Shown here one piece after another: positions 20,985 to 61,393 of a stretch of 64,000 bases of DNA. The notes under the pieces were generated by a model, which searched no databases, was not told the DNA's origin, and worked only from the letters and a program-made list of their open reading frames with translations. A program made the translations under genes and the position numbers. Numbering within the stretch: the first letter of the stretch is position 1; the number at the start of each line of letters is the position of its first letter. Source of the stretch: Syntrophales bacterium (GTDB lineage Bacteria; Desulfobacterota; Syntrophia; Syntrophales; UBA2210); contig CAXXKT010000001.1 in assembly GCA_963662405.2 (NCBI GenBank), positions 1,088,001 through 1,152,000 of the forward strand. Reading direction: 5' to 3'.

Positions 20985-20991
20985 TTATAAC

Positions 20992-22311: not shown

Positions 22312-22354
22312 ATTATATCATTATAAACAAAACCATATGGTCATGGGAGCGAAC

Positions 22355-26262: not shown

Positions 26263-26381
26263 TTTTGTTAGTGTTGTGCCGTCAAATTGTATGCTGGAAA
26301 TTTAGAAACAAAGAGAAAGAAACTTGCAAAGCCTCTGGTAGCCTATCCGGGGACACAGGTCTTCCAAAAACTTTTGCCAAG

Positions 26382-26642: not shown

Positions 26643-27393
26643 CTCGGAGCATCTGCTGTAAAATCCTGCCCAAGAAGGTTTTCGGCTATCGGCAAATTGT
26701 GCTTTGAATCCGTGGTAATCTTAAATCTGCGCTTTGTCTTTGCCATTATTCCGTTCTCTCGCATAAGACGGGCAACACGGTTCTTACCGCACCTGATGCC
26801 TCGTGCACGCAATTGGGCGGTAATTCTGGGGCTACCATAGGCCTTGCGACTCTTTCCATGGACCAGCCTGATCGTAAAAACAAGACTCTCGTTTTCCTCG
26901 TCTCTCATGCTCTTGCGACGCCTCTTCCATGCGTAATAACTGCTCCGGCCTATATGCAATATCCGGCACATCTTTCCCACTCGATATGCGGAGCGGTATT
27001 TGTCAATGAACTGATATTTCATCGAGGGTGTTTTGAAAAGATGGCCAACGCTTTTTTTAATATGTCTCGCTCCTCCGTCACATCGGCCAGCGTCTTCTTT
27101 AACTTTCGCATCTCATCTCCTTCGGGTTTCATACGCCCTTTACCAGGAAATGCATCCTCAATGTCTTCCAGACACTCTCGCTTCCATCGGTGTATCGCAT
27201 TAGGGTGGATATCTAAATCCCGCACTACTTCTAAAAAACCTTCCGTCCTCTTCCTGTAACTAAATGGACTACTTCCTTCTTGAATTCTTTGTCAAAACTT
27301 CTCCGCTCTCTCTTATTTCCCACTGCACACCTCCAAGTCCTTCTTCCTTTATCTCTACCGTTTCGGTGTGTCCATCATTTTGGGGGAACTTCA
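26643..27393 (-). mobile_element. Truncated IS3-family element (left end, frameshifted orfA, orfB cut before the DDE core)
   Basis: End sequence TGAAGTTCCCCCAAAATGATGGACAC at 27393. orfA starts at GTG 27323 (RRSFDKEFKKE...ERDILKKA) with an extra base in the run at 27233-27238. A7G slippery site and ATGA orfA/orfB overlap. orfB has YGSPRI and RVARLMR and breaks off after FTADAP. Confidence 0.9.
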
Positions 27394-45543: not shown

Positions 45544-46185
45544 TCAGTAGTTGTGTCCCGGTCGCTGGGGAAGGGTAAAGACGCAGGCGGCAAATCGTCC
45601 ATCATGGCTCAGGCTGAGGATCACGGGAAGCACCTCCTCTTTTATCCGGACCTCAGGGGGCGCCAGACCGTAATCCTCTTTCGGACGGATAATCGCGATT
45701 TCCTCCGGGTCGTTACCGAACAGGACCGACAGATTCTGCCTTGTCATGTGACGGACGAAGTCCGATTCGTCGGTGGATACACCGTGGTCCCGGGGTATCT
45801 CTCGGACATCCCATATGATCTTGTTGATTGTTTCGTGGTCCGCCGCACCGATACAGTGAACGTAATCGTCCGTGAATGTGAAACTGACGGAGATCGTACC
45901 ACGGGGGGTATGAACGGTCCCCGATTCCGGAACAGAATGATTGTGAGAAGACAACTTCACCTCATACCGTCTCGGGGCGGAAGAGACAGCAGGAGAACAC
46001 CTTCGCACCACCTTGTATGCCGTCTCTTTTCCCGCCCACAGCCGCCAGAGCATCCTGTCCGGATCGTCGTTGTCCCGAATCAGCCGTTGCTCATCCGGCG
46101 TGAACACCCTGCTCATGAAGCGGATATCGCGACTTTTCCCTGCTGTCCGAGGATCCGTAAGATCCACGATATCGTTGCCGATCAA
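45544..46185 (-). CDS. 4'-phosphopantetheinyl transferase
   Basis: IGNDIVD, LWAGKETAYK, LSLSHDG; TTG start. Confidence 0.88.
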   Translation of the reverse strand: MIGNDIVDLTDPRTAGKSRDIRFMSRVFTPDEQRLIRDNDDPDRMLWRLWAGKETAYKVVRRCSPAVSSAPRRYEVKLSSHNHSVPESGTVHTPRGTISVSFTFTDDYVHCIGAADHETINKIIWDVREIPRDHGVSTDESDFVRHMTRQNLSVLFGNDPEEIAIIRPKEDYGLAPPEVRIKEEVLPVILSLSHDGRFAACVFTLPQRPGHNY

Positions 46186-46912
46186 AGTACTCTTCCTCCA
46201 TGCGGGCTAGGTTCCCCACGATCTGCCGTGCGCAACTTCGCTGAGCCTTTAACCCCTGCCCGACCATTTCCGGAGAGAAGGGCTCAAGCTTCATGGTAAA
46301 GCGCTCACCGAACCGAGGGAGGCCACTGTACGTCTCCTGGCCGTCCCCTCTGAGATAAATACACATTACCCGGCAATCGGGGGCGTTGGCCACCAGGCGC
46401 CCGACACCGTATGAGGCATTCTCCACGTTTACCCTGCCTGTCCGGGAACGTCCCCCTTCCGGGAATATGAGGAGGCTGTTCTTCTTCTGCATGAGATAGA
46501 GGCACCGATCGAAGGTGGATCTCATATGTGTCCTGTCGCCGCCGCGGTTGATGGGGATGCACTTCGACAGGTAGCAAAAGACCGTCAGGAAGATATTCTT
46601 CTGAAAATTGGCTCGTTCCGGGAGATTCCAGGGGAGCCGTCGATAGCGCACCAGGTACCCGAAGAGGGGCGCCATGGCGCACTGAAGGATAAGAGAATCG
46701 ATCATGGTCAGGTGATTCGGACAGATAATCCACGGTCCCGTATGTTCCCGAAAGAGCAATCTGACCGTTCTTCGAACCTGCCTCAGATCGCGGACCCGGT
46801 ACCGCATCAGCCGGAGAAACAGATACGTGCTGGTACCGACAACCAGGGTAGACAGCCATCCCAGGATGGCCTGCAACCTATGGAGATAACGTTTCGTCCG
46901 GTTCATGGTCAT
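46091..46912 (-). CDS. PlsC-like lysophospholipid acyltransferase
   Basis: NHLTMID (HX4D), PINRG, IFPEGGRS. Confidence 0.9.
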   Translation of the reverse strand: MTMNRTKRYLHRLQAILGWLSTLVVGTSTYLFLRLMRYRVRDLRQVRRTVRLLFREHTGPWIICPNHLTMIDSLILQCAMAPLFGYLVRYRRLPWNLPERANFQKNIFLTVFCYLSKCIPINRGGDRTHMRSTFDRCLYLMQKKNSLLIFPEGGRSRTGRVNVENASYGVGRLVANAPDCRVMCIYLRGDGQETYSGLPRFGERFTMKLEPFSPEMVGQGLKAQRSCARQIVGNLARMEEEYFDRQRYRGSYGSSDSREKSRYPLHEQGVHAG

Positions 46913-46915
46913 GGC

Positions 46916-47164
46916 CTATTGCAACTTTCCCTTGACGATGTCGACGGCATTCCCGATCGTTCGAATCTGATCGGCATCATCATCGTCGATCTCGATGTCG
47001 AAGGCATCTTCACACTTGATAATCACATCAACCAGGCGCGCGGAATTGACCTTCAGATCGTCGAGGATATGGGTGTCATTTGTCACACCTTCCAGCAGTG
47101 CCGGATCCTTGACGTACGGTCTCAAGATATCTACCATTTCTTTAAAGATCTGTTGTTCTTCCAT
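46916..47164 (-). CDS. Acyl carrier protein with an atypical NSA motif
   Basis: Acidic 82-aa protein, DDLKVNSARLVDVI, EDAFDIEI. Confidence 0.88.
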   Translation of the reverse strand: MEEQQIFKEMVDILRPYVKDPALLEGVTNDTHILDDLKVNSARLVDVIIKCEDAFDIEIDDDDADQIRTIGNAVDIVKGKLQ

Positions 47165-47206
47165 TTTCTTTCTCCTTATGATGTATTTTTATATGTTTGA
47201 TTGTGC

Positions 47207-48484
47207 TTATGCCGCGTCCCACTTCTTGACGATGAGGCAGCTGTTCACATCCCCGAAACCGAAACTGGCCTTGGCGATGATGCTCAACTCAGGGTATTCC
47301 ATGGTCTCCCGCGGGATCTTTTCCGTAAAGGCCTCAATCTCGGGATGGATATCCTCACAATTGATGGAGGGATGGAGAAAACCCTTGTGCAACTGGAGAG
47401 CAACAGCCACCGTCTCGATGGCCCCCGCTGCACCGAGACAGTGCCCGACCATCGATTTTGTCGAGTTGATGTAAGGAAAGGTGTCGGGGGCCCGATTCAG
47501 GGCCTTTGACCAGTTCCAGACCTCTGAAGGGTCTGCGAAGGTCGCGGTGAGATGACCGCTGATGGCGTCGATATCTGCGGGAGTTATCCCCGCATCGGCT
47601 ATCGCCCCCCTGATGCAGGATTGAACCCCTGCCGGATTCGGCGCCGTCATGCTGCCGCCGCCTCGCTGACCGCCGCAGTTGACGACCCCGCCCCCGATTT
47701 CCGCGTAGATCCGCGCACCCCGCGTTCGTGCCGCTTCCAGCTCTTCGAGGACCAGGACGGCCGCCCCTGCGCCGGGAACAAATCCGTTTGCCGTGGCGCT
47801 CATCGGTCGTGAACCCTTCTCGGGATGATCGTTGAATTTGCGGGCGATGACCCGCATCGAATCGAAACCGGCCCAGATGTAGGGAGAAGGTCCTTCGGAC
47901 CCCCCCGCCAGCATGCGTGTTGCCTGCCCGGTTCGTATCCTCCACAGGGCATCGACGATCGCCTCTGTTCCGGTACTGCAGGCGGAGGAATTCGAGGTCA
48001 CCTGATTTCCGAGACCCAGGAGACCTCCCACGCGTGCGCTCGTCCCGCTGTTCATCACCTGCTCGACAATCGTGCTTCCCATCCGCCGTGTTCTCCCCGC
48101 ATTGACCATGGGGACCACCGTTTCGGCGATCGTGTCCATCCCGCCGATACCGCACCCGAGGATGGCTCCCGTTTCCCAGTCCACCGGATCGTTGTCCCCG
48201 GGGATCTCGAAGCCCGCATCGCGCCACGCATCCACGGCGGATATGGAAACATACCCGATGTTCTGGTTCATGGAGAGGCGCTCCTCTTCATTGAAGTAAT
48301 CGGGCAGGATCTCCTCGATCCCCTCCGGTGCCCCTCCGATCTGGCAACCGAACTTCAGTTCCTCCAGTCGGGGAAAAAACCGGACTCCCGAACGCCCCTC
48401 GCGCAGGGCCTGTTCGAACGTATCAAGCCCATGGCCGTTCGGCGCTACCACTCCCATACCTGTAATCACAACTCTACGTTTCAT
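47207..48484 (-). CDS. Beta-ketoacyl-ACP synthase (FabF-like)
   Basis: RRVVITGMG; catalytic Cys (SACST), His (GHLTAT) and His (GHCLGA); SFGFG. Confidence 0.92.
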   Translation of the reverse strand: MKRRVVITGMGVVAPNGHGLDTFEQALREGRSGVRFFPRLEELKFGCQIGGAPEGIEEILPDYFNEEERLSMNQNIGYVSISAVDAWRDAGFEIPGDNDPVDWETGAILGCGIGGMDTIAETVVPMVNAGRTRRMGSTIVEQVMNSGTSARVGGLLGLGNQVTSNSSACSTGTEAIVDALWRIRTGQATRMLAGGSEGPSPYIWAGFDSMRVIARKFNDHPEKGSRPMSATANGFVPGAGAAVLVLEELEAARTRGARIYAEIGGGVVNCGGQRGGGSMTAPNPAGVQSCIRGAIADAGITPADIDAISGHLTATFADPSEVWNWSKALNRAPDTFPYINSTKSMVGHCLGAAGAIETVAVALQLHKGFLHPSINCEDIHPEIEAFTEKIPRETMEYPELSIIAKASFGFGDVNSCLIVKKWDAA

Positions 48485-48950
48485 GAGAATCAACCCCTCT
48501 GCCGGTCAGTGTCCCGGAACAGATAAGTTCGCCGTGTTCCCGTTCCATACTGACCTTTGTTTTCAGGTTTCCCCTGCGGAGATAGACCTTTTCGCCTCTG
48601 ATGACGACCCTCTCGCCGGGACGGACGATGGCGTGAAACTCACACTCGTCGGCCATGACGAAGAGGGTAACCATGTGGCGAATGCTTTCAGGCAACACAC
48701 CCTGGAGTATCAGCAGGTATATCCCGAAGGCGACGACCCCCGTCTGCGCCATCGTCTCGATCAGGATGACCCCGGGGGTGACGGGTCGTCCGGGGAAATG
48801 CCCCCGGTAGAAGTACTCGTTCTCCCGGAAGCGGTATGTCCCGACTATGTGATCCTCGTCCATCTCCAGGATGTCATCGATAAAGCGAAACGGAGGTCTC
48901 TGGGGCACCATCTCCAGGACCTGCCGTACCGTTTCGGAATCAACCGCCAT
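48474..48950 (-). CDS. FabZ-like 3-hydroxyacyl-ACP dehydratase
   Basis: PQRPPFRFID, GHFPGRPVTPGVILIETMAQ. Confidence 0.9.
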   Translation of the reverse strand: MAVDSETVRQVLEMVPQRPPFRFIDDILEMDEDHIVGTYRFRENEYFYRGHFPGRPVTPGVILIETMAQTGVVAFGIYLLILQGVLPESIRHMVTLFVMADECEFHAIVRPGERVVIRGEKVYLRRGNLKTKVSMEREHGELICSGTLTGRGVDSHET

Positions 48951-49692
48951 ACAGCCCTCCGTTTACATGAATCACGCTCCCCGTAACGTACGTACCCCTG
49001 CGGGAGAGGAAGGCAACCACGTCTGCCACCTCTTCGGGACGTCCCATCCGCCCCAGGGGAATATTCTGGGCGATACCCTGCCGCACCTCGTCGGAGAGTT
49101 CCGTGGTCATCGCCGTATCGATGAATCCCGGCGCCACCGAGTTGACGAGGATATTACGCCCCTCCAGCTCTTTGGTGAGTGATTTGGTGAAGGCATCGAG
49201 GGCCGCTTTCTCCATCGTGTACGGTATCTGCCATTTGTTGCCGGTGTGGCCCACTACACTGGATATATTGATGATCCTGCCCTCCCCTGTCCGCAGCATG
49301 AAGAGGCGCAGTATCCGTTTGGTGAGATACCAGGTCCCGCGAAGCAGAGAGCGCTGCAGGTCGAACTCCTCGATCTTCATCGAGTTGATATCGTTATTGA
49401 CTGATATGCCGGCGTTATTGACCAGGACATCCACCCGTCCCGCCTCCCTCTTGATCGTCTTGACCATCGCCTCTCCGTCATCAGGGTCGGCGATATCGGC
49501 CTTGAGGAGAAAGCCGTTTCCAATACGGGAAAGGACCTCTTGCGCCGGCCCCTCGCTTGTACGATAGTGGATGCCGACCCTGAACCCTTCACCGGCGAGG
49601 GCCTCGCAACACGCGGCACCGATCCCGGTCCCCCCTCCCGTAACAATCGCCACGGGTCTTGACTCTGCGTCTGTACTGGCTGATCGGTTCAT
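48940..49692 (-). CDS. FabG-like 3-oxoacyl-ACP reductase
   Basis: TGGGTGIG, NNAG, YTMEK, VAPGFIDT, IPLGRMG. Confidence 0.9.
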   Translation of the reverse strand: MNRSASTDAESRPVAIVTGGGTGIGAACCEALAGEGFRVGIHYRTSEGPAQEVLSRIGNGFLLKADIADPDDGEAMVKTIKREAGRVDVLVNNAGISVNNDINSMKIEEFDLQRSLLRGTWYLTKRILRLFMLRTGEGRIINISSVVGHTGNKWQIPYTMEKAALDAFTKSLTKELEGRNILVNSVAPGFIDTAMTTELSDEVRQGIAQNIPLGRMGRPEEVADVVAFLSRRGTYVTGSVIHVNGGLYGG

Positions 49693-50285
49693 ATCTCCCT
49701 CTTGATAATGCCTCCCCGTGAATTGGAGGAGGGTTTTGGATAATCCGGATAGACGATCCCCTTGAAGATCCCCGTCCGGGCATTTTTGATGGTCATGATC
49801 AACTCGTCATCGACGAATACGGTGCCGTCACCGATGACGATGCTCGATCCGGAGTCCTTGAGATTCGAGAACCGTTTCACCTCGATTTCATACCGGACTA
49901 TCTGGTTATAGGGGCGTATCTGTCCATTGAAGACGATCTCCTCGCATCCCAGGGCCCTTCCGCCTCCCAGGCCACCCCTCCAGCAGCAGTAAAAACCAAG
50001 CAATTGCCAGATCGCGTCCACGCACAGGCACCCCGGCTGCACCGGGTCACCCGGCATGTGGCACTGAAAATACCAGGCGTCCATCCGGATGTCCTGCTCG
50101 GCCACGATGGTCCCTTTCCGTCCGTTCCCCAAAATTGAAAGGATCCGGTCAACCATCAAAAACGGCGGCGCGGGGAGCCGCGAGTCAAAAGATTCGGGCG
50201 GGTCGTCCACCAGTCGTCCGTAGGCGAAGGCAAGAAGATCGTTCAAGCAAAAGCTTTCCGTATTCATGAATTCAGTGTAATTCAA
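49689..50285 (-). CDS. fabA: FabA-type 3-hydroxyacyl-ACP dehydratase/isomerase
   Basis: LPAPPFLMVDRI, CHMPGDPVQPGCLCVDAIWQL (His/Asp dyad), GRALG. Confidence 0.88.
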   Translation of the reverse strand: MNYTEFMNTESFCLNDLLAFAYGRLVDDPPESFDSRLPAPPFLMVDRILSILGNGRKGTIVAEQDIRMDAWYFQCHMPGDPVQPGCLCVDAIWQLLGFYCCWRGGLGGGRALGCEEIVFNGQIRPYNQIVRYEIEVKRFSNLKDSGSSIVIGDGTVFVDDELIMTIKNARTGIFKGIVYPDYPKPSSNSRGGIIKREI

Positions 50286-50312
50286 CGTTTCCTCACAATC
50301 CGTTCAGTATCC

Positions 50313-51299
50313 TTATTGCACCACCCTGAGCATTGCCCGGACCCAGGTAAGCCCTCCCCCCACCAGGGCCAGCGCGATATGGTCGCCGGGACGCAGTTCA
50401 TCCCAGTGCTGGCTCAGCGTGCTGGGTGCCCCCGAACACCCGGCGTTGCCGTGCTCCACGATATTGTACCAGTGATTTTCTTCGGATATCCCGCACCGTT
50501 CGCACGTGGTTTGCAGCATCCCGAAGTTCGCCTGGTGCCCGATGAATTTGAATCTCCCCCCATCCACCGGGTACATCTCCTGTAATTCCCTGACTAGTTG
50601 TGTCGTCCTGCGTATCGCGAACCCCTGGACGGCGCTCCCCTCCTGGTCAAAGTGTCCGACGCGGGGGACGCGGACCTTGTCCCATGAAGAGGGACTCGAA
50701 TCGCAGAAGAAGGCCTCGCAGACTATCCGCGAGGGGACGGAGGCGGAGACGACGGCGGCACTGGTCCCGTCACCGAAGAGGGGCGCGGCCCGCCGGTCCG
50801 AATAATCGATGACCTTGGTCACATTTTCCGGCTGGACAATCAGGACATAGGGCGGAAGCGTTTCCGGCCTCATGTCGGAAAGAAACTTCAGCTGCATCCC
50901 GAAGGTAGAGCAGGCGGAATTCAGGTCGAAGCAGGGGACGTCGATCCCGATCTTCCCCGCTACCGTGGCTGCCTCCGCCGGGGTTATATAGTCGGACGCC
51001 GAACCGCCGGATATCACCATCCCGATATCTGCAGCTCTGAGCCCCGCCCTCTCGAGCGCGTGCTGCGCCGCGAGCGCTCCCGTCTGGGCGTTCGTATACA
51101 GCGCAGCCTCCGTGGCGGCCCGGAGATCCCTGTTCTTTGTTGCCTTGATATAATCCAAAGGGAGACCCGTCCGGCGGGTACGGATGCCGACCCGCTCAAG
51201 GATCCATTCCTCGCTGCTCCCGATGTCCAGTTCCTCCAGGAACCGGTTTGTGATCACATTCTCCGGGTGAAAGTGTCCCAACCCATGAAGATACAGCAT
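50313..51299 (-). CDS. FabH-like ketoacyl-ACP synthase III
   Basis: WILERVGI; catalytic Cys (SACST), His (GHQAN) and Asn (HGNAG); FGDG. Confidence 0.88.
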   Translation of the reverse strand: MLYLHGLGHFHPENVITNRFLEELDIGSSEEWILERVGIRTRRTGLPLDYIKATKNRDLRAATEAALYTNAQTGALAAQHALERAGLRAADIGMVISGGSASDYITPAEAATVAGKIGIDVPCFDLNSACSTFGMQLKFLSDMRPETLPPYVLIVQPENVTKVIDYSDRRAAPLFGDGTSAAVVSASVPSRIVCEAFFCDSSPSSWDKVRVPRVGHFDQEGSAVQGFAIRRTTQLVRELQEMYPVDGGRFKFIGHQANFGMLQTTCERCGISEENHWYNIVEHGNAGCSGAPSTLSQHWDELRPGDHIALALVGGGLTWVRAMLRVVQ

Positions 51300-51301
51300 C
51301 C

Positions 51302-52501
51302 CTATACCAGCTCCCGTCCGATGATCATGTCCTGCACCTCTCTGACGCCCTCATAGATATCAATGATATGGGCGTCCCGTGCCAGCTTGGAGATCTCGTA
51401 CTCCGCCATGAACCCGTACCCACCGTGCAGGTGAAGGCCCTCCGTGGCGCAGAAGAGGGCCGCCTCCGCGGCGACGTTTTTAGCCAGGGAGGCGTATACA
51501 CCCCGATCGTCCGCCCCTTCCTGGACCTTGGCCGCCGCCTTCATCAGGGCGAGGTCCGCCAGCTCGACCCGCTTCCACATCGCCACCAGGGCGTCGCGCG
51601 CCACCGGCATGTCGGAGATCCTCTGCCCGAACTGTTTGCGTTCCTTCGTGTATTCCAACGTAATATCAAAGGCGCGTTTTGCGAGGCCGACACCGATCGC
51701 CGCTACCATGGGGCGCGCGTAATCGAGAACATCCACGGCGTATTTGAAGCCGAGCCGTCGGTTCCCGATGATCTGATAGTCCTCGATGACGACATCTTCG
51801 AAGGTCACCGTCGCCGTATTCGAGAGACGCTGTCCGAGCTTGTCCTCGGGTTTTCCCGTCGTGATCGTGCCTCCCCCCGGGAGGGATATCACCCTCCCCC
51901 CCGTGGGTTGGGCGGTGATATCGGCCTCGGAAATCATACTGTACGGTATGATGACACAGGCCATCATCAGGCCCTTGGGACTTCCCGTCTTGCAGAAAAC
52001 GGTAAATTGGGAGGCATGCGAGGCATTGGTGATAAAACACTTCTCGCCGTTGAGGATATATTTTCCGTTGTCTCCCTTGCGTATGAAGGTTGTCATGGCG
52101 GAATTGTCGGAACCCGCCCCGGGTTCCGTCAGACAGAAGGCCGCAATAATGGGGGCCTCGACAAAGGGCGTAAGGAAGGCCTTTTTCTGCTCATCCGTCC
52201 CGTGCTGCGTGATCACCACATTGGCAAGATCATTACACATCGTTGATGTAGAGATGCCGGTGTCGCCGTAGGACAGATCCCTGACGATCAGGGCAGATGA
52301 GATGATATCCACCTCAAACCCCTTCACCGATTCGGGAACGGAGAGATTCATCAGCCCCATCTCCCACGCCTTTTCGATAAGATCTGCAGGGAAGACATGC
52401 CCTTGCTCCCGGTCCATAATATCGGGAGTTATTTCATTTTTGACGAATTTCCGGACCGTTTCCACGTATATCTTCTGGTCGTCGGTAAGATTGAAATCCA
52501 T
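51302..52501 (-). CDS. Acyl-CoA (possibly acyl-ACP) dehydrogenase
   Basis: FCLTEPGAGSD, NGEKCFITN, KLGQR, HGGYG, IYEG. Confidence 0.9.
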   Translation of the reverse strand: MDFNLTDDQKIYVETVRKFVKNEITPDIMDREQGHVFPADLIEKAWEMGLMNLSVPESVKGFEVDIISSALIVRDLSYGDTGISTSTMCNDLANVVITQHGTDEQKKAFLTPFVEAPIIAAFCLTEPGAGSDNSAMTTFIRKGDNGKYILNGEKCFITNASHASQFTVFCKTGSPKGLMMACVIIPYSMISEADITAQPTGGRVISLPGGGTITTGKPEDKLGQRLSNTATVTFEDVVIEDYQIIGNRRLGFKYAVDVLDYARPMVAAIGVGLAKRAFDITLEYTKERKQFGQRISDMPVARDALVAMWKRVELADLALMKAAAKVQEGADDRGVYASLAKNVAAEAALFCATEGLHLHGGYGFMAEYEISKLARDAHIIDIYEGVREVQDMIIGRELV

Positions 52502-52599
52502 GATATGCTTATTCTCCTGAGCAATAGGGGCTCTTTACAGAAACCGATCCGCTTGAGGCGCACCCTTCTCCTGCGGACCAATGTGGCAGCGGCTTCTTG

Positions 52600-53565
52600 T
52601 CATGGTTGTTTTTGATCGATGCCGGCCTTTTGAAAGACCCTCTGGGCGCCTGAAAAGGTCGTAATGGACTGACACTCCAACTGCATAGTCTTGAAAAATT
52701 TTCTGAGGGGCCAGCCGGGACCGATCTCGATGACGGAACCGGCGACAGCCGAGAGGGCTTCCATGTTCTTCCTCCACTGGACCGCATGACTCAGCTGTGA
52801 AACCAGCATGTCAATAATCTCTTTACTGCTGTTCGCGTGGAAGTAACCGGTCACATTTGCCGTCACCCGCGTCGCACCGTCGGGCTGCAGTCGCTCCACG
52901 ACCCCGCACAATACTTCCCGAAATCGCCCCTCGATTGTTTTCATAAAGCGACTGTGGAAGGGGGCGCTGACATTCAGACGGACGAAACGAAACGATGTAT
53001 TATCAATGAATACAGCCCTTATCTTCTGTTCCGCTTCGGAGATTGCCTGTGCCTCACCGCTGATAACGATCTGATTGGTTGAGTTGTCGTTTGCCAGATC
53101 GATCGGGGACCCCTCCAGCGCCTCAAGGAGCCCGTCTGCATCCAGATCATCCGCGATAACGGCCGCCATCGCCCCCATCCCGACCGGTGTCGCCTCCTGC
53201 ATGAGGCGGCCCCGTGTCTGGACCGTCTTCAGGGCATCGGGGAAGGGGAATACCCCCGCGGCGACCAGGGCGGTATATTCGCCGAGGCTGTGCCCCCCGA
53301 AATATGAGGGGCTGAAGTCATAGAGCGACTGAAGTCCCCGAAACATGGCTATTTCGGTCGCCAGGATACAGGGCTGGGAGTATTCAGTCAGATTCAGCCG
53401 TTCGTCTTCCTCGAAACACCTGGCGATCACATCCCATCCCAGGGCGTCGGAGGCCTCATGGTAGGTGTCCCGGCTTACCGGGATTGCATCGTAGAAATCC
53501 TTTCCCATCCCGGGGCGCTGTGAGCCTTGGCCCGGAAAAACGACTGCGGTGTTCCGATCATCCAT
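52600..53565 (-). CDS. fabD: Malonyl-CoA:ACP transacylase
   Basis: FPGQGSQ, GHSLGEY, VSAPFHS. Confidence 0.93.
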   Translation of the reverse strand: MDDRNTAVVFPGQGSQRPGMGKDFYDAIPVSRDTYHEASDALGWDVIARCFEEDERLNLTEYSQPCILATEIAMFRGLQSLYDFSPSYFGGHSLGEYTALVAAGVFPFPDALKTVQTRGRLMQEATPVGMGAMAAVIADDLDADGLLEALEGSPIDLANDNSTNQIVISGEAQAISEAEQKIRAVFIDNTSFRFVRLNVSAPFHSRFMKTIEGRFREVLCGVVERLQPDGATRVTANVTGYFHANSSKEIIDMLVSQLSHAVQWRKNMEALSAVAGSVIEIGPGWPLRKFFKTMQLECQSITTFSGAQRVFQKAGIDQKQP

Positions 53566-53614
53566 TCTCGCTTTTCACTTCCTTCCCGTGACATGCTGTA
53601 TCCGCATCACCTAC

Positions 53615-53629
53615 GCATATTACATGCCA
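53615..53629 (-). promoter_or_regulatory. Sigma-54 promoter of the lipid-synthesis cluster
   Basis: Minus strand TGGCATGTAATATGC (GG-N10-GC), 50 bp upstream of fabD. Confidence 0.65.
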
Positions 53630-53794
53630 TCTGCTCACCCCCTGTCGCATATCGAACCAGGGGACTGTAATTCTTTCCAAATCCGCGATTTGTGCCATCC
53701 ATCCGGAGAAGCAGGCAGAAGAGATTGGGTGCGTAACACCCTTCGCGGTCAGTAACGGATTACACAGTCGCATGCCATGCCGTCGCTCCGGTGC

Positions 53795-53812
53795 GGATTG
53801 TCATTACAATCC
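53795..53812. promoter_or_regulatory. Palindrome, candidate upstream activator sequence
   Basis: GGATTGT-catt-ACAATCC, about 170 bp upstream of the sigma-54 site. Confidence 0.4.
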
Positions 53813-54160
53813 CGATGTCCGTTGATCCATACCCTGTCATTCTGTTGCTCCGTAACTTGCCACACAGCGCATTCTCTGGTATCATCCGCGCACTTTTGGT
53901 AATATCGGAATTGGGCACGTCAGTGCCATGCCAGAAACCAAGCCGCGCTTTCATCACAATGGGCGAAATGCACAAAACCGTTTTTCAGTCGTTCTGTTTT
54001 TTCGGTCGAAAAAGGCGATTACGCCATAAAATCATTTTGCTGAGCACCAATGGCCTTTCAGGTAATTTGAGAATGCTTGTGCGAAAAAAAAGAAGTCGTC
54101 AGGTTGACTGAATGGCAATCTCGTAACTCGTGCTCGGGCTTACATAATGGAGAGCCTATC

Positions 54161-56320
54161 ATGGGTCAGGAGTTGAGCGAAGGGCTTACGAACAGAGTAA
54201 ACATCGTGCAGGACAACGCACGAAACGAACAGAGGTTGGAAGCAGCGTCAGATCTCTCGCAGAATGAAGAGAGAGTTCTTTTTGAGGCCTTACCCGTTGG
54301 CTTTTGCATCATCCATAACGGCCGATTCAACTATGTCAATTCTTGGTTGTCTCATATGTTAGGATACGAGCACTCCGGACAATTGATCGGAAAATCATTC
54401 CTCGATATCATTTACCCTTACGACAGAGATCGGGTTGCACGTGTAATGCAAAAAGGGAAGGATCACAATGCCCCAGAGCAAGGTATCTGCCGTGTACTCA
54501 AAAAAGACGGATCTGTTATCTGGGGAAGTCTAGGCGGACGAAGCATGATTCATAACGGAAAATATTCATATGCGGGATATATAACCGAAGTCACCATTTT
54601 GAGAGAAATGGAAGAATCTTTGAAAAAATATAAGACCGTGATCAATGAAATTGAAGACAGTATTGGCGAAACAGACATCAAGGGAAATCTACTTTTTATC
54701 AACGATGCCGTATGCAGACTCCGGGGATATACAAGGGAAGAAATGATCGGCAGAAATTATACCTCCTTCATTGACAAAGAAGGGGCAAAACGCTTACGAA
54801 AAGCCTTTAATACCGTGTATAAAACGGGGATTCCCGGCCGATATGTTCATGAAGTGATACTGAAAGACGGTACGCGTAGGATCGCTGAAGATTCCATCTC
54901 TTTGATCCGAGATGCGGACGGAACCACCACAGGGTTTCGATCGGTACAACGCGATGTAACCGACCGTGAGGAAGCAGGGACAAAGCTGATTGAACAACGC
55001 GCCCGTCTTGAGGCCATATTCAGAAGCGTACAAGATGCTATTATCACCGTAACCCCAGATTTGCGGGTCATTGCGGCCAATACCGCAACGGAGAACATCT
55101 GCGGGATCAAGGTGGAAGAGATCGAGGGAAAGCTATTTCCGCACTGTCTGAACCAGTGTAGTCGATCGTGCTGTGAGGTTTTGCGGCAGACCCTTGAAAA
55201 GAAAATACCCATTCAAGAATATCATATCGAATGCAATTCCCAAAGACGCCATCACCAGGTCGCAAGTGTGAGCAGTTCTCCACTTCTGGATCCGGAGGGC
55301 AGGTTTATGGGGGCCGTCCTGGTGATCCGAGATATTACCCTGCTCAGAAATCTGGAGCGGGAGTTGCACGAGAGACATCAATTTCAAAATATCATCGGCA
55401 AAAGTCAGAAGATGCAGGACATCTACCGGCTCTTAGAAGACTTGGCCAGCCTGGAGACCACGGTTTTAGTCACGGGAGAAAGTGGAACAGGAAAGGAAGT
55501 CATCGCCAAGGCGCTTCACTACAGCGGTCATCGCGCCGGCAAGCCGTTCGTCAAGGTAAGCTGTTCGGCACTGGCGGAAAACCTCTTGGAAAGCGAACTG
55601 TTCGGTCATGTCAAAGGGGCGTTTACAGGGGCCATTCATGACAAGCAGGGACGATTCCAGGCGGCTGATGGTGGAACAATCCTGCTGGACGAGATTGGTG
55701 ACGTTTCACCTCTCATCCAGCTCAAGCTTTTACGGGTTTTGCAGGATAAGGAATTTGAGCGAGTGGGGGAGACCATCACACGGAAGGTTGATGTCCGTGT
55801 GATTGCATGCACCAACAAAAACCTCAAAGAAAAAGTGAAAAATGGGGAATTCCGAGAAGACCTGTACTATCGTTTGAAAGTAGTTGAAATTCCTCTCCCT
55901 CGACTCCGCGAAAGGCTCAAAGACGTACCGTTGCTTGTCGATCACTTCTGCCGCATCTTTAATAAGAGTTTTCATAAAAAGATCGATGGGGTATCCAGTG
56001 ATGTCCTCGCTTGCTTCATGAATTATCCCTGGCCGGGGAATGTGCGGGAGCTTGAACATGCTGTCGAATGTGCGTTCGTGCTCTGCCACGAGAGGGTTAT
56101 CACCCTTGATCACTTGCCCCCGGAAATCAAAAACTACAAGGGGCCGACGCGGGCCACTGTCCCTGACATTCACTTGGAAAAGCGGGAAGAAGCCCGGAAT
56201 ATTCTGGATGCTCTCAACGAAACGTTGTGGAACAAGACTAAGGCTGCGCACCTACTTGGTATAAGTCGGCAGACGCTATATCGGAAAATTTACGCATATG
56301 AAATTATGAGCAAGGTGTAA
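54161..56320 (+). CDS. Sigma-54 enhancer-binding protein with three PAS domains
   Basis: PAS repeats, GESGTGKE, ESELFGHVKGAFTGA, FREDLYYRL, WPGNVREL, Fis-type HTH. Alternative start at 54077. Confidence 0.93.
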   Translation: MGQELSEGLTNRVNIVQDNARNEQRLEAASDLSQNEERVLFEALPVGFCIIHNGRFNYVNSWLSHMLGYEHSGQLIGKSFLDIIYPYDRDRVARVMQKGKDHNAPEQGICRVLKKDGSVIWGSLGGRSMIHNGKYSYAGYITEVTILREMEESLKKYKTVINEIEDSIGETDIKGNLLFINDAVCRLRGYTREEMIGRNYTSFIDKEGAKRLRKAFNTVYKTGIPGRYVHEVILKDGTRRIAEDSISLIRDADGTTTGFRSVQRDVTDREEAGTKLIEQRARLEAIFRSVQDAIITVTPDLRVIAANTATENICGIKVEEIEGKLFPHCLNQCSRSCCEVLRQTLEKKIPIQEYHIECNSQRRHHQVASVSSSPLLDPEGRFMGAVLVIRDITLLRNLERELHERHQFQNIIGKSQKMQDIYRLLEDLASLETTVLVTGESGTGKEVIAKALHYSGHRAGKPFVKVSCSALAENLLESELFGHVKGAFTGAIHDKQGRFQAADGGTILLDEIGDVSPLIQLKLLRVLQDKEFERVGETITRKVDVRVIACTNKNLKEKVKNGEFREDLYYRLKVVEIPLPRLRERLKDVPLLVDHFCRIFNKSFHKKIDGVSSDVLACFMNYPWPGNVRELEHAVECAFVLCHERVITLDHLPPEIKNYKGPTRATVPDIHLEKREEARNILDALNETLWNKTKAAHLLGISRQTLYRKIYAYEIMSKV

Positions 56321-56367
56321 CATAAAACGTAACATGTCACATACTGTAAATTTACATAATGTCACAT
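56316..56367. promoter_or_regulatory. Cluster of YGT(A/C)ACAT boxes and a palindrome, candidate enhancer
   Basis: tgtaacat (56316), cgtaacat (56328), tgtcacat (56335 and 56360), and the perfect palindrome tgtaaatttaca (56345-56356). Confidence 0.5.
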
Positions 56368-56461
56368 GATCCTTCATTCGGCATTTTCTAATGTATCTGT
56401 AGCATACCCTAAGAAACTGGATTAAATTCATTTTTTTCAACCCATTTACCTGTCCTGCGCG

Positions 56462-56476
56462 CGGCATGTATCTTGC
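56462..56476 (+). promoter_or_regulatory. Sigma-54 promoter of the SBP gene
   Basis: CGGCATGTATCTTGC (GG-N10-GC, with TTGC). Confidence 0.7.
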
Positions 56477-56565
56477 GCAGCCTGCTTGTTAGCCATATTT
56501 GATCCCGTTACAAAAGGGGCAGGGTAATCATGAAAAAGTATGCAATCGGAAAAGGAGGAAAGGCA

Positions 56566-57936
56566 ATGGGAAAAAACTTGAAATTTAGTCTGTTTGCTGT
56601 GGCAACGCTCGTACTAACGCTTTGCTTCCCAGCCGGGATGAGCGCCGCCCCGTCAGGGGAGCCAATCGTGATCGGGTATGCCGGTATGGTGCTCTCGCCG
56701 GGGACGAGACCCTCTATGGCCATCCAGAAGATAGCGGTCCAGGAAATCAACGATGCGGGCGGGGTGCTCGGGCACCCGCTGAAGTACGTAATCGCCGACA
56801 ACAAAGGAGCCACCTCCCTGACGGTGGAGGGCTGCCGGCGTCTGCTCCTCGAGGAAAAGGCGAAGTTCATCTTTGTAGAGGGAAGAACGGAGATTGGTCT
56901 CGCCGCCCAGGAAAACGCGGCGGCCATGTTCAAGGACTACCCGCACATAATGATCTTCAATGGGGCCATGGGAAGAGAACTGACCGACCGCGTAGCCGAT
57001 GAATACGAAAAGTACAAATTCTGCTTCCGCGACTTCGATCCAGAGGCGGGTCACTATGCCCAGAGAAGGTATTTCTCAGAACACATATATCCCAGGATGA
57101 TGCCAGGCTTCAAAAAGGTGGCGATTCTATGGGAAGACCTCGAGTGGACCAAGTTATTCCGAGAGGGGGACCCGTCCTTGGGATTGCCTGGCTGGGAAGA
57201 AATGATGGAGAAAGATTATGGGTACGATATTGTCTACAGCAAGAATGTCAAGCCGCGGGGAACAATGTACCTGCCCCTCTTCCAGCAGGTCGCCATGGAA
57301 AAAGCCGATTTTCTCTTCTACGTTACGTCCTGGTTTACCGACACGGAATCCTTCGCCAAGCAGTGGACCGATTCGGCTGCACGAGATATCCCAACATCTC
57401 TCTATGGGGGTGTTTCACAGACAAGAGATTTTTGGAAACTGACGGGAGGAAAATGTCTCGGCATTGTTAGTAGTTATGCCGATGCTATGCTTCCGGTCAC
57501 GGACAAAACCATTCCCTTCCTCGAGATGACCAAGAAGCACAATATCCCGGGTCAACAGGCTGTTCACATCGCCTATGCAGATATCTACTATATCAAGAAG
57601 GTGATCGAAACCGCCGGGGGTGTGGATGATATCGACAAGTTGATCAAGGCAATGGAGACAACTGAAATTACCTATTCACTCGGGAAGATGGCCTACGAGA
57701 CTCAGCGAATCAAACCCTTTTTCCATTCAAGAAAAAGGGTTGATCCGAACGATCCTCAGCATAAAAGCTATCCCGGCATGTTTTTCCAAGCGATGGCGCA
57801 ATATCAGAAGAACGGGGAGATGGGATATCTGGGAGGTTCCTGCAAGGAAAATGAGGAGCTTGCCCAAAACGCCGGCATGGGAAAACCGGAAAATTACGTT
57901 TATCCGGCCGAACTGAGAAAGAGGGAAAAGAAATAA
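56566..57936 (+). CDS. LivJ-like (branched-chain amino acid type) periplasmic substrate-binding protein, orphan
   Basis: Signal peptide, IAVQEINDAGGVLG motif, AGGAGG RBS. Confidence 0.85.
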   Translation: MGKNLKFSLFAVATLVLTLCFPAGMSAAPSGEPIVIGYAGMVLSPGTRPSMAIQKIAVQEINDAGGVLGHPLKYVIADNKGATSLTVEGCRRLLLEEKAKFIFVEGRTEIGLAAQENAAAMFKDYPHIMIFNGAMGRELTDRVADEYEKYKFCFRDFDPEAGHYAQRRYFSEHIYPRMMPGFKKVAILWEDLEWTKLFREGDPSLGLPGWEEMMEKDYGYDIVYSKNVKPRGTMYLPLFQQVAMEKADFLFYVTSWFTDTESFAKQWTDSAARDIPTSLYGGVSQTRDFWKLTGGKCLGIVSSYADAMLPVTDKTIPFLEMTKKHNIPGQQAVHIAYADIYYIKKVIETAGGVDDIDKLIKAMETTEITYSLGKMAYETQRIKPFFHSRKRVDPNDPQHKSYPGMFFQAMAQYQKNGEMGYLGGSCKENEELAQNAGMGKPENYVYPAELRKREKK

Positions 57937-57946
57937 TACCCCCCAG

Positions 57947-57989
57947 TGAAAGGCGGATCTCGCTGCAATATGGTGAGATCCGCCTTTCA
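57947..57989 (+). terminator. Hairpin after the SBP gene
   Basis: tgaaaggcggatctc...gagatccgcctttca. Confidence 0.6.
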
Positions 57990-58343
57990 ACCATCCCGCC
58001 TTTCGAATCCGCTTCCGTGAAAACCCTATAACAACACCAGCCAGGACCTTTTATCGATGAATATGTGATTACACTGTCTGCCAAACAGACGAGGTGGCGG
58101 CCCACAATGGTGTACAGCGAAAGAACCGCGTCAACGCGATCTGCCGGACGGCGCTTGAGCCGTCAACGAATCTTTTTCCCGTACAATCGACCGACTTTTT
58201 CGGAAAGATCATTTCACGCAAAATAACACGGCTCCTGTCGTTCTTGTAAAGCCACGGGGTGTATGATAGCATTTCCATGGTAAGATCTTGTGTGGACCTA
58301 TTCACTTGTTGAGCCCTACCGGTGTATCGGAGGAGCACTACAT

Positions 58344-59870
58344 ATGGAGACCTTTGCCTTGGGGGCGATCAGCCTGACGATTGCGGCATCGTTGCTCATA
58401 AAGAAAAACAAATCGCTGCTCCATGTCACTTTCGCCGTTCTCTGCCTGGGACTATTCCTTGAGAAGACCGGGACCTTCTTCGGCGATATTTTCGCCGCCG
58501 ATTTCTGGGCGACTATTCGTGCCTTGGGTTTCCTGATCGTTCCGCCCTTTCTGATTGCCTTCAGCCGGATATTTCTCGGTAACGAAGAGATACCAACACG
58601 TTTGCCGATCTATGCGGGTCTTATCAGCCTGATCATCGCCGTCGCCTATTTCCCCTTCCTCTTTCACTGGCGTTACACCGACATTATCCTATACACCTAC
58701 CTCGGCTTCGCCGTACTCTATTGTTTTGGTACACTCCTGCGCACCGTGTATCACGCCGAAGACGGGATCGCGCGGAAGCGGTTCGCCTATATCGTTGCAG
58801 CATGTGCCGTCTCAGCCCTTGTAAGTATGACGAACATCGTGCATGTCTACCATCCCGGAGTCCCCCTGCTGTCGGATATCGTCCTTGCGGGTTTGATCTA
58901 TTTCATCCTCATCATCATCACCTACCCCAGACTCCCCGAGCTGTATGAAATCATGGTCCGGGCGGCGATCGTTTTTCTCCTGATCATCTTTGCAACGGTC
59001 GTGTTCTATCTTGTACTCGGTATCTTCGGCGGGGACGAGGCAATTCCAGCCTTTACCCTGATCTTCATGTCATCATTTCTCATTGTCATCTTCATAGACC
59101 CCGTAAAACTGATCCTCAAAAGGGCCGGGATGTATTTCTTCCCCGAAGGGAAAGGATCCCTCAACTCGCTTTATACCATCGATGAAGAGGTAGAGCGTGA
59201 AAAATCACTCCTCCTGGAAGAGATGGCGAGTACGCTCGCACACGAGATCCGGAACCCCCTCGGCTCGATTAAGGCCGCAGCTCAATACCTGAAATCTGAC
59301 AGTGAGTCCGAGGAAAACCAGGCGATTTTTGATGTGATTACGGCAGAAATCGATCGCCTGAACAATGTGGTTTCTCGCTTTCTCACCTATGCCAAGCCGG
59401 AGACGATCGAACCGGATACCCGGAGTATCGGGGATATCCTGGAGCGGATCATCGCCCTGATAACGACACGGCATCTCCCCGCAGGGATCGTTGTCAGGCG
59501 AAACATCCCGCAGGATCTTTCCCCGGTCTGGGTTGACGGTGAACAGATAATGCAGGCGATCCTGAATATTGTCCTGAACGCCGTGGAGGCGATGCCGGAC
59601 GGGGGTACCCTCACGCTGTCGGCGCGAGACATCGATGAAGAGGAAAACCCGCGTGTTGAAGTGGTGATCGGTGATACGGGCGAGGGAATCACCAGTACAG
59701 CGATGCGCCGTATTTTTAAACCGTTTTATACCACCAAGGAGAAGGGGACCGGAATTGGCCTCGCCATCTCTCACAAGATCATCAAGGCCCATGGCGGAAC
59801 CATTGCCGTGACCTCCTCCGCGGGGCATGGAGCTGTCTTCCGCATCCGGATACCGGCATATCCGGTATAG
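58344..59870 (+). CDS. Membrane sensor histidine kinase
   Basis: Multi-TM N-terminus; AHEIRNPL H-box; N box; DTGEG; FKPFYTTK; GTGIGL. Confidence 0.92.
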   Translation: METFALGAISLTIAASLLIKKNKSLLHVTFAVLCLGLFLEKTGTFFGDIFAADFWATIRALGFLIVPPFLIAFSRIFLGNEEIPTRLPIYAGLISLIIAVAYFPFLFHWRYTDIILYTYLGFAVLYCFGTLLRTVYHAEDGIARKRFAYIVAACAVSALVSMTNIVHVYHPGVPLLSDIVLAGLIYFILIIITYPRLPELYEIMVRAAIVFLLIIFATVVFYLVLGIFGGDEAIPAFTLIFMSSFLIVIFIDPVKLILKRAGMYFFPEGKGSLNSLYTIDEEVEREKSLLLEEMASTLAHEIRNPLGSIKAAAQYLKSDSESEENQAIFDVITAEIDRLNNVVSRFLTYAKPETIEPDTRSIGDILERIIALITTRHLPAGIVVRRNIPQDLSPVWVDGEQIMQAILNIVLNAVEAMPDGGTLTLSARDIDEEENPRVEVVIGDTGEGITSTAMRRIFKPFYTTKEKGTGIGLAISHKIIKAHGGTIAVTSSAGHGAVFRIRIPAYPV

Positions 59871-60004
59871 AGATCGTGATGGTCTCTGGTGAAAAGAAGG
59901 CGTCTGCTCATCAGGAAAAGACTCTTCGGGAGCTTGACAGGGCTCTGTTCCTGTAATAGATTCAACCCTCGATAGAAGGCGGATATGTCACGCGTGAGAC
60001 CCAC

Positions 60005-61393
60005 ATGGCCACTATAAAACCAATGGAAAAGAAGACCGTTCTGGTCGTTGATGATGAAAAGAGTATGCGATTGGTTTTGTCCGCCATGCTCAAAAAGGAA
60101 GGGTACGGAGTTGCGACCGCCGCGGATGGCTTCGAGGGGCTCGATCTCCTCAAGAAGACCGATGTCTCTGTTGTTATCACCGATCTGAAGATGCCCCGGC
60201 TTGGGGGTATCGGTCTTTTGAACCGCGTCGTCGATAAATATCCCGCCCTGCCGGTGATCATTGTCACCGCCCACGGGACCATATCCAATGCCGTGGAAGC
60301 GGTCAAGAAGGGGGCCTTCGACTACATCACCAAGCCCTTCGACCAGGAAGATCTGAAGAACGTGATAGCCAAGGCGGTCAAGACCAAATCATTCAATGAC
60401 CGCGAACTGGTGTTTGATTCCCGGGACGATGATCAGTATGCCATTATCGGGACCAGCGGACCGATGCGGGAGATATTCGATATCATCAAAACGGTCGCAC
60501 CGACCCCGACGACCATATTGATCAACGGGGAGACGGGGACGGGGAAGGAACTCGTCGCCCGGGCGATCCATGAGAACAGTCCACGGAAGGATCATCCCTT
60601 CATCAAGATCAACTGTGCGGCGATCCCTGAAAATTTGATGGAGAGCGAGCTGTTCGGATACGAGAAGGGGGCCTTTACCGGGGCAGCCAACAGGAAACTC
60701 GGGAGATTCGAACAGGCCGACACGGGGACGCTCTTTCTCGATGAGATCGGTGACCTGCCGAAGGACATGCAGGCAAAGCTTCTCCGGACGATCCAGGACC
60801 GGGAGTTCGAGCGGGTCGGAGGGGTGCAGACTATCAAGGTCGATGTCAGGCTTATTGCCGCGACGAACAGGGATCTCATTCAGGACGTGCAGGACAAACA
60901 CTTCCGGGAGGATCTTTACTATCGGATTAATGTCCTGCCGATTATCCTCCCGGCCCTTCGGGAGAGGAAGGGCGATGTCCCGCTTCTCGTCGATCATTTC
61001 ATCGATAAATTCAACAGGAAGTTGAATCGGCACGTGCGGCGGGTCGAACCCGCGGTGGAACAGTTTTTTTGCGAGTATGACTGGCCCGGCAACATCAGGG
61101 AGATGGAGAATCTTTTGGAAAGGCTCATCCTTCTGGCAAACGATGATACCGTGCGGTACGGACAGCTCCCCACCGATATGTTTACCCCCTCTTCCGATGA
61201 TGTGATCACGCCCGAGTTGAAGCAGGGGTCTATCAAGGATATCGTCAAGGGACAGGCCGAGGCGGTGGAGAGTCATATCATCGCACGGGTACTCGACCAA
61301 TGCGGCAAGAATGTGACGCGGGCGGCCGATCGATTGGGGATCAGTCGCAAGGGGCTGCAATTGAAGATGATCAAATACGGGTTGAGAAAATAA
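60005..61393 (+). CDS. NtrC/AtoC-family sigma-54 response regulator
   Basis: VVDDE and TDLKMP receiver motifs, GETGTGKE, GAFTGA, WPGNIRE, HTH. Confidence 0.94.
   Translation: MATIKPMEKKTVLVVDDEKSMRLVLSAMLKKEGYGVATAADGFEGLDLLKKTDVSVVITDLKMPRLGGIGLLNRVVDKYPALPVIIVTAHGTISNAVEAVKKGAFDYITKPFDQEDLKNVIAKAVKTKSFNDRELVFDSRDDDQYAIIGTSGPMREIFDIIKTVAPTPTTILINGETGTGKELVARAIHENSPRKDHPFIKINCAAIPENLMESELFGYEKGAFTGAANRKLGRFEQADTGTLFLDEIGDLPKDMQAKLLRTIQDREFERVGGVQTIKVDVRLIAATNRDLIQDVQDKHFREDLYYRINVLPIILPALRERKGDVPLLVDHFIDKFNRKLNRHVRRVEPAVEQFFCEYDWPGNIREMENLLERLILLANDDTVRYGQLPTDMFTPSSDDVITPELKQGSIKDIVKGQAEAVESHIIARVLDQCGKNVTRAADRLGISRKGLQLKMIKYGLRK

Follow-up and report, generated by a model that had tools for sequence, protein, structure and literature searches.

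A putative sigma-54-controlled fatty acid synthesis operon of Syntrophales with an acyl-CoA dehydrogenase-like protein in the position of the enoyl-ACP reductase

The closest described counterparts of the operon reported here are the type II fatty acid synthase (FAS II) of Escherichia coli with its anaerobic FabA/FabB branch and the reductase FabL of Bacillus subtilis, which acts on enoyl-acyl carrier protein (ACP). We analysed a stretch of 64,000 nucleotides (the window) from the genome of a Syntrophales bacterium (assembly GCA_963662405.2, contig CAXXKT010000001.1, positions 1,088,001 to 1,152,000), which contains a ten-gene operon with the same enzyme classes and the same catalytic residues for all steps from loading through isomerisation. 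In contrast to the described systems, the genes are combined in one operon with its own ACP carrying an N-S attachment motif, its own phosphopantetheinyl transferase (PPTase) and acyltransferase, and apparent sigma-54 control, whereas FabI, FabK, FabL and FabV are missing, an acyl-CoA dehydrogenase (ACAD) homologue takes the place of the reductase, and the ketosynthase (KS) scores below the cutoffs for FabF and FabB. The genome (G000; rated 100% complete, three contigs, C1 to C3) was searched for further genes of this pathway. We see about an even chance that the operon represents the sigma-54-controlled de novo fatty acid synthase of most Syntrophales, the only complete one in G000, with the ACAD acting as an enoyl-ACP reductase linked to electron-transfer flavoprotein (ETF).

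The ten open reading frames (ORFs) are encoded on the minus strand from 53565 down to 45544 of the window and mostly abut or overlap, with intergenic gaps of 98, 2, 27, -4, -11, -20, 42, 3 and -95 bp from fabD to the PPTase gene. All ten products fall into the expected Pfam families, and a motif search of each protein recovered the expected catalytic residues, whose roles are well established; on both points, the initial annotation of the locus was confirmed. The fabD gene (52600-53565) codes for a malonyl-CoA:ACP transacylase of 321 aa (PF00698; TIGR00128 at 247 bits vs. a cutoff of 261; Ser93, Arg118, His204) and is followed by the gene for the ACAD (51302-52501), a protein of 399 aa with Pfam ACAD domains which resembles medium-chain acyl-CoA dehydrogenase (MCAD) and is the proposed enoyl-ACP reductase. 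The next genes code for a FabH-like β-ketoacyl-ACP synthase III of 328 aa (50313-51299; PF08545/PF08541; Cys130, His255, Asn285), a FabA dehydratase/isomerase of 198 aa (49689-50285; NF003509 at 195 bits, above the cutoff of 124) with the isomerase-type residues His76 and Asp90, a FabG-type ketoreductase of 250 aa (48940-49692; best family TIGR01830) with a Tyr-x3-Lys site (Ser144, Tyr158, Lys162), and a FabZ-type dehydratase of 158 aa (48474-48950; PF07977; His51, Glu65). The elongating KS of 428 aa (47207-48493, with an alternative ATG start at 48484) contains Cys172, His314 and His351 and reaches 292 bits in TIGR03150 vs. a cutoff of 494. It is followed by the dedicated ACP of 82 aa (46916-47164; PF00550), whose attachment residue Ser41 lies in an unusual N-S motif that is invariant in 28/28 aligned proteins, a PlsC-superfamily acyltransferase of 273 aa (46091-46912; PF01553; His67-x4-Asp72), and the dedicated PPTase of 213 aa (45544-46185; PF01648). 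The last two ORFs share 95 bp (46091-46185). The acyltransferase did not match the NCBIfam model for PlsC at E 1e-8, has no solved relative in the PDB, and is labelled just as 'acyltransferase' in the ESM Atlas.

The operon therefore contains discrete FabD, FabH, elongating KS, FabG, dehydratase and ACP proteins with their catalytic residues, as is typical for a type II FAS. A second KS, a chain-length factor or tailoring enzymes were not present in the operon according to the ORF list and Pfam, and this gene content, with a single elongating KS, does not match an aryl-polyene, ladderane or type II polyketide synthase (PKS) cluster. Because the NCBIfam scores were mostly below the equivalog cutoffs (with FabA as the exception) and the proteins share 33-44% identity with the products of the fab genes on contig C3, we assign the operon proteins by sequence to a distinct subfamily rather than to recent copies of housekeeping genes. 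The KS likewise forms its own subfamily, with 33% identity to canonical FabF, and showed no plasmid match at E 1e-60.

The initial annotation had regarded the operon as a second pathway beside a housekeeping synthase, which was not borne out by the genes found elsewhere. The canonical block on contig C3 has the composition yceD-rpmF-fabD-fabG-acpP-fabF, and neither plsX nor fabH is present in the usual slot, where rpmF abuts fabD and leaves no room. Similarly, fabZ is missing from its usual slot, as lpxD abuts lpxA, which is also the case in five relatives examined; the coordinates of these missing-gene junctions are C1:78596-80446 of G000 and L001:9457-11168. The operon-encoded FabA and FabZ proteins are the sole PF07977 matches in G000, no paralogue of FabH was detected by tblastn or phmmer, and a motif search, which is a weak test, gave no convincing MaoC-type dehydratase in this genome. 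Apart from the operon, we thus found no complete FAS II in G000 but only the partial fabD-fabG-acpP-fabF block, which alone cannot complete an elongation cycle. This remnant may be kept for providing 3-hydroxyacyl-ACP for lipid A, possibly because LpxA is present in 60/61 Syntrophales genomes. PlsX was detected in none of these 61 genomes and PlsY in 13, G000 not being among them. We also considered the operon-encoded acyltransferase as a replacement of PlsX/PlsY, an idea which was weakened by the presence of one PlsB gene, in addition to two PlsC genes, outside of the operon. Altogether, the operon appears to have replaced an eroded canonical fab pathway in most Syntrophales, and we consider it probable that it represents the main de novo synthase.

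As noted in the initial annotation, no known enoyl-ACP reductase is encoded in the operon: Pfam and NCBIfam scans did not detect FabI, FabK, FabL or FabV. The suggested search of the remaining genome of G000 also yielded none of them above the cutoff, leaving only FabK-like proteins of lower score, which are considered below. Among the 61 Syntrophales genomes, the FabI model matched a single one at E 1e-45, which was not G000, and FabK did not exceed its cutoff in any. FabV was absent from all four Syntrophales tested, while the same model did match G307. None of the 19 short-chain dehydrogenases/reductases (SDRs) of G000 contains a Tyr-x6-Lys site; the search did not include FabL2, FabI2 and FabMG by name. 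Moreover, the genomes G003, G056 and G059 (97, 99 and 92% complete) contain the operon without any FabI, FabV, full-length protein of the FabK/NMO type, or the SDR described in the following.

Homologous operons with an SDR in the position of the ACAD are present in Gemmatimonadota, Myxococcota, Spirochaetota, KSB1, Oligoflexus, other Desulfobacterota and Bacteroidota. The uncharacterised sister operons of all but the last of these groups contain homologous fabH-fabA-fabG-fabZ-KS-ACP-acyltransferase-PPTase genes in the same order, with 51-67% identity between the KS proteins, but differ in having a FabL-like SDR in the position of the ACAD, in often including a single-chain acetyl-CoA carboxylase, and in the lack of a conserved sigma-54 site in five tested. 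The carboxylase of about 1870 aa is encoded directly behind many of them (L043:13215-18836 and similar). In G291, ten genes are arranged in identical order, with the FabL-like SDR instead of the ACAD between fabD and fabH, and all five operons from Desulfobacterota outside of Syntrophales contain the SDR and no ACAD. Among 87 loci with a near-full-length KS, we found the ACAD in 35, the SDR in 35, neither in 17 (many of them cut short) and both in none; these loci are kin, and the counts do not represent independent events. The FabL-like SDR was likewise absent from all 80 metagenome loci carrying the ACAD, and was not found in any of the 61 Syntrophales genomes. All 35 SDR segments covering the active site show the motif Ser-x10-Tyr-x6-Lys, and Ser-Xn-Tyr-X6-Lys is given as the signature of FabL in the available text of PMC9260719. 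The only solved match of the sister SDR is FabL of B. subtilis (3OIC), and FabL was the best family for eight of nine SDRs scanned, the ninth being a different, FabG-like SDR. In a KS tree made by a quick method and in a tree of seven proteins, four or five of the SDR-type operons of Desulfobacterota were nested within the ACAD-type ones, which suggests that repeated swaps may have occurred; the trees do not settle their number and direction, and a single ACAD clade was not rejected by an approximately unbiased (AU) test (p 0.46). The proposal that the ACAD is the best candidate for the missing reductase is strengthened by these data, as it fills the slot of the FabL-like SDR in operons for which no known reductase was found. 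The suggested alternative of an anaerobic desaturase has become less likely, because the ACAD is exchanged with a FabL-like SDR and cis double bonds are already accessible through FabA.

The ACAD itself shows MCAD as its best solved match by both sequence and predicted fold (TM 0.89), and it has the properties of the MCAD-type family, namely the three-domain fold and a catalytic Glu in the J-K loop, with Glu384 aligning to the catalytic Glu376 of MCAD. Glu384 is invariant in 44/44 ACADs of this subfamily, together with Glu219, Arg248, Arg249 and Arg387. The predicted equivalents of the ETF-binding pocket, Tyr12, Gly49 and Ile72, as well as Glu219 (Glu212 in MCAD), are invariant and have hydrophobic neighbours; the MCAD residues used for this mapping are those named in the available part of PMC10925408. 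None of the 16 paralogues in the genome contains the Arg248/Arg249 pair, whose place is taken by an acidic residue in most of them, and position 387 is not Arg in any. The pair is located near the adenine site, at the start of the helix which in long-chain acyl-CoA dehydrogenase bears the CoA-adenine-stacking residue, and would fit the docking of an acidic ACP. With a mean identity of 77%, the ACAD belongs to the best-conserved proteins of the operon, and its gene is directly followed by fabH in all 68 metagenome loci with room for it. A motif search revealed one EtfAB pair in the genome, encoded outside of the operon. Modelling of the ACAD dimer in complex with FAD and ACP gave a score of 0.03 and a mark of 0.32 and was used neither for nor against the proposed function.

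The loci closest to the operon are labelled as Syntrophales or Syntrophaceae. In the set of 61 Syntrophales genomes including G000, both KS and ACAD were detected in 49, neither in 11, and the ACAD alone in a single genome of 75% completeness; thus, the two proteins co-occur in 49 of the 50 genomes having the ACAD. A survey of 251 Desulfobacterota genomes, with up to seven candidates scored per genome, recovered the ACAD subfamily in 8/8 Syntrophales and 0/243 others, and the KS in five of these 243. Of the 11 operon-less genomes, nine show no match for FabA/FabZ and two a weak one. In G008, G013, G015, G016, G017, G023, G033, G044 and G058, matches for PlsX and FabI are missing as well as those for FabA/FabZ, and eight of these nine have LpxA. 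First-look ACAD candidates showed a median of 28 in the operon-less genomes vs. 15 in the others, which are not copy numbers and come from kin rather than independent genomes.

In the cultured species Syntrophus aciditrophicus, an operon which apparently corresponds to this one is expressed. The available part of PMC8942843 includes a protein list of 979 rows (mmc5), which also covers the methanogenic partner, with benzoate or crotonate as the stated substrates. Listed are SYN_01700 (FabD, 321 aa), SYN_01699 (ACAD, 414 aa, 27 PSMs), SYN_01697 (FabA, 196 aa) and SYN_01693 (ACP, 82 aa, 21 PSMs), and these tags fall exactly at the positions predicted by the ten-gene order. Further rows represent the sigma-54 regulator SYN_01702 and one ETF pair, and SYN_01699 was also identified in a 2D-gel spot (PMC8942843). 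No row for another ACP or an enoyl-ACP reductase was found in this list, and the supplement mmc7 of the same paper contains no ACAD or ACP row.

From the gene content, the slot swap and the conserved residues, we infer a pathway in which each activity, the direction of the ACAD reaction and the use of ACP and ETF are predicted. The PPTase would arm the private ACP, FabD would load malonyl units, FabH would prime and the KS elongate the chain, and FabG would reduce the 3-oxo intermediates. Dehydration would be catalysed by FabZ or FabA, the second of which could also give rise to unsaturated acids by way of cis-3 chains. The ACAD would then take up electrons from ETF and reduce trans-2-enoyl-ACP to acyl-ACP, a step for which the sister operons would use their NAD(P)H-dependent FabL-like SDR. 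The enoyl/acyl couple lies far above NAD(P)H in redox potential and near the ETF pool. Finally, the acyltransferase, together with PlsB and PlsC encoded elsewhere, may transfer the chains to glycerolipids; the product and the inducing signal are as yet part of the model. We judge the assignment of the ACAD as enoyl-ACP reductase to be as plausible as all other options taken together, and we hold the same opinion on the wider claim that Syntrophales replaced an NAD(P)H-dependent enoyl-ACP reductase by an ETF-fed flavoenzyme of the ACAD fold, which would constitute a new enoyl-ACP reductase family.

Several observations weigh against this proposal. G000 contains seven FabK/NMO-like flavoproteins, the best one scoring 222 bits vs. 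a cutoff of 453, and at least one such protein, which could serve as the reductase, is present in 57/61 genomes. The sister SDRs reach 110-161 bits vs. the FabL cutoff of 328, and their reductase role is inferred. The ACAD retains Asp260, Arg263 and Arg396, which we take to be CoA-contacting residues in MCAD. The order can do without the operon, which is lacking in 11/61 genomes, and full-length AccA was not found in any of the 61, partial matches being mostly to carboxyltransferases of 500-600 aa. The operons of G046, L172 and L181 keep the ACAD without fabA and fabZ; because G046 (locus L100) has no PF07977 match anywhere in its genome, an enoyl reductase would have no known source of substrate there. 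G295 retains fabD and the ACAD gene next to that of an unrelated SDR resembling 3-hydroxyacyl-CoA dehydrogenase, with no operon KS found (L099:4796-7743, L120), and its canonical block is reduced to acpP-fabF, with fabD and fabG lost. Regarding the proteome of S. aciditrophicus, the available list shows only four of the ten operon products, leaving six unlisted, and the locus is apparently matched by tag order, names and lengths instead of sequence.

Some of these points may be explained if the operon is still the main synthase, one of the FabK/NMO-like proteins or an unrecognised enzyme performs the reduction, and the ACAD acts oxidatively, either as an acyl-ACP dehydrogenase feeding trans-2 chains to FabA or on acyl-CoA primers or salvaged chains. 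This would agree with the seven candidates in G000 and their occurrence in most genomes, with the retention of the ACAD in G295 and where the dehydratases are lost, with the oxidative MCAD as the closest solved relative, and with the names of the carrier-protein NCBIfam families of this fold (MbtN, PigA and RedW), which are called dehydrogenases. However, it leaves the mutual exclusion of ACAD and SDR unexplained, G003, G056 and G059 have the operon without any of the other reductases searched for, and the available list for S. aciditrophicus has no row named after nitropropane or nitronate (PMC8942843). We therefore consider an oxidative role possible but rather unlikely. The operon may also represent an accessory inducible pathway which builds one special or unsaturated chain for one lipid, while bulk chains are scavenged or elongated as CoA esters and loaded by PlsB/PlsC. 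The private ACP, PPTase and acyltransferase, the sigma-54 control, the PlsB and two PlsC genes outside of the operon, the occurrence of LpxA in 60/61 genomes when 11 lack the operon, and the type III PKS genes adjoining the Bacteroidota relatives are consistent with this, as is a similarly ordered block of Coxiella burnetii, described in the available part of PMC5423948 as an added route to unsaturated fatty acids. Yet our searches of G000 gave no second complete cycle that depends on ACP, and the operon is devoid of tailoring genes. Proteins that apparently match it are listed for cultures on benzoate or crotonate (PMC8942843, part available), and a single-chain acetyl-CoA carboxylase often ends the sister operons or, in three Syntrophales, a carboxyltransferase follows the acyltransferase gene, as expected for bulk synthesis. 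An accessory function thus seems unlikely to us. We finally weighed whether the ACAD is a β-oxidation passenger which merely shares the promoter and has no role in the cycle, considering the 16 other ACADs in the genome and the SDR adjoining it in G295. This appears very improbable, as the ACAD gene is single-copy, lies 2 bp from fabH, is followed by fabH in every locus with room, and co-occurs with the KS in all but one of the genomes having it.

A sigma-54 promoter had been proposed in front of the operon, and this prediction is supported by its conservation. The promoter-like site of the -24/-12 type (GG-N10-GC) is located at 53615-53629 on the minus strand. Taken by itself, the site carries little weight, with p 0.07 in a shuffling test and 924 sites of this kind in the genome; however, a site with at least eight of ten consensus bases occurs upstream of 28/33 ACAD-type and 0/5 SDR-type operons, with 1.5 expected from shuffling in all 38. 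Scans for sigma-70 promoters and terminators remained at chance level. About 100-140 bp upstream of the site, we found a conserved double inverted repeat (about 53725-53772, minus strand), which is present in 7/7 aligned upstream regions, shows blastn matches in L131, L133 and L003, and probably serves as the binding site of a sigma-54 activator. In the relatives, fabD has divergent neighbours which code for a membrane histidine kinase and a regulator of the NtrC type. The corresponding genes of the window are located on the plus strand at 58290-59870 (kinase; Pfam and relatives' loci) and 60005-61393 (NtrC-type sigma-54 response regulator, the probable operon activator as judged from its conserved linkage), and this pair lies at 58290-61393 because some 4.4 kb of DNA (about 53801-58227; GC 0.487) have been inserted between the activator site and the kinase gene. 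Together, the conserved -24/-12 site, the upstream activator site and the linked activator would be characteristic of a sigma-54 regulon. The insertion encodes a sigma-54 activator of the PAS type as well as a periplasmic binding protein. The former (54077-56320) was initially considered as the conserved regulator and rejected, because it belongs to this recent insertion. Close paralogues of both inserted genes occur elsewhere in the genome (58-89% identity for the PAS activator and 70-74% for the periplasmic binding protein), one PAS activator paralogue being split into two ORFs (C1:636642-638443).

Some further genes were recorded in passing. A carboxyltransferase similar to the β-subunit of propionyl-CoA carboxylase (PCC) is encoded right after the acyltransferase gene in G020, G014 and G022 (L126:12985-14435, L127:11107-12579, L128:11006-12490), and genes for biotin carboxylase, a sodium-decarboxylase β-subunit and birA are found near the operon in others. 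G000 contains a third ACP (L106:2966-5883; C1 about 685000-687900) among genes for radical SAM, phosphotransacetylase-like and AcpS proteins, as well as a fusion protein of 911 aa with acyl-CoA ligase, ACP and acyltransferase domains (L105:2259-4994; C1:2162258-2164993 of G000), which is a possible fatty acid salvage enzyme. Elsewhere in the window, positions 16442-27022 resemble a restriction-modification locus of type I that contains additional genes and an IS fragment as well as a stretch of low GC content (0.40 at 20001-22000).

If the proposed function of the ACAD is correct, cells living near the thermodynamic limit would spend high-potential electrons from β-oxidation on lipid synthesis, and organisms with a central part in methanogenic degradation would have their membrane synthesis tied to the ETF pool. 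A nearly universal step would then have been solved in a new way, by a reductase of the ACAD fold, and an annotation gap of an entire order would be filled. The apparently matching operon of S. aciditrophicus, for which PMC8942843 provides the partial protein record, makes the idea testable in a cultured species. Our data also raise the questions of where the 11 operon-less genomes obtain their acyl chains and how malonyl-CoA is formed without AccA.

Neither the operon nor an enoyl-ACP reductase of the ACAD type was found to be described in the literature searched, to which most subscription papers did not belong. A review on enoyl-ACP reductases from 2022 covers SDR-type enzymes and FabK, and a term search did not find 'acyl-CoA dehydrogenase' in its main text (PMC9260719). 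By description, the operon resembles the genes CBU_0034-0038 of C. burnetii (ACP, FabB, FabZ, FabA, FabH), which comprise five of the same gene kinds with tags in the same order and are assigned an origin from a deltaproteobacterium or spirochaete; as far as the available text goes, they differ in being an addition to vertically inherited fab genes, with no ACAD or acyltransferase mentioned (PMC5423948). For Desulfobacterium autotrophicum, whose genome is reported to be devoid of fabA and fabZ, a 'secondary' Type S lipid synthase has been proposed as the core one, which is a Pfa-like multidomain system in contrast to the dissociated operon shown here (PMC3098273, part available). A relation of the core genes to a module adjoining type III PKS genes had been suggested and is supported for Bacteroidota, where genes for a type III PKS, a methyltransferase and an FAD oxidoreductase adjoin SDR-fabZ-KS-ACP at L081 and a PKS gene is present at L078; G000 has no type III PKS match, and its operon does not belong to this module. 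Regarding the ACAD, the family names of MbtN, PigA and RedW indicate that this fold acts on carrier-bound thioesters, as proposed here, but these proteins perform oxidative tailoring in secondary metabolism, and the operon ACAD scores 37-187 bits with their models vs. cutoffs of 500-700. ETF-linked reduction and carrier-protein substrates are thus each known for the ACAD fold, and their combination was not found in the literature searched. Butyryl-CoA dehydrogenase (Bcd) with EtfAB, the acryloyl-CoA reductase AcrC and the caffeyl-CoA reductase CarC share this fold and run reductively in anaerobes; the structures of Bcd and CarC match the operon ACAD, and AcrC is its best NCBIfam match, with 263 bits vs. 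a cutoff of 640. These enzymes use CoA esters in energy metabolism and are usually encoded beside etf genes, whereas the proposed substrate of the operon ACAD is enoyl-ACP and its etfAB genes are located elsewhere.

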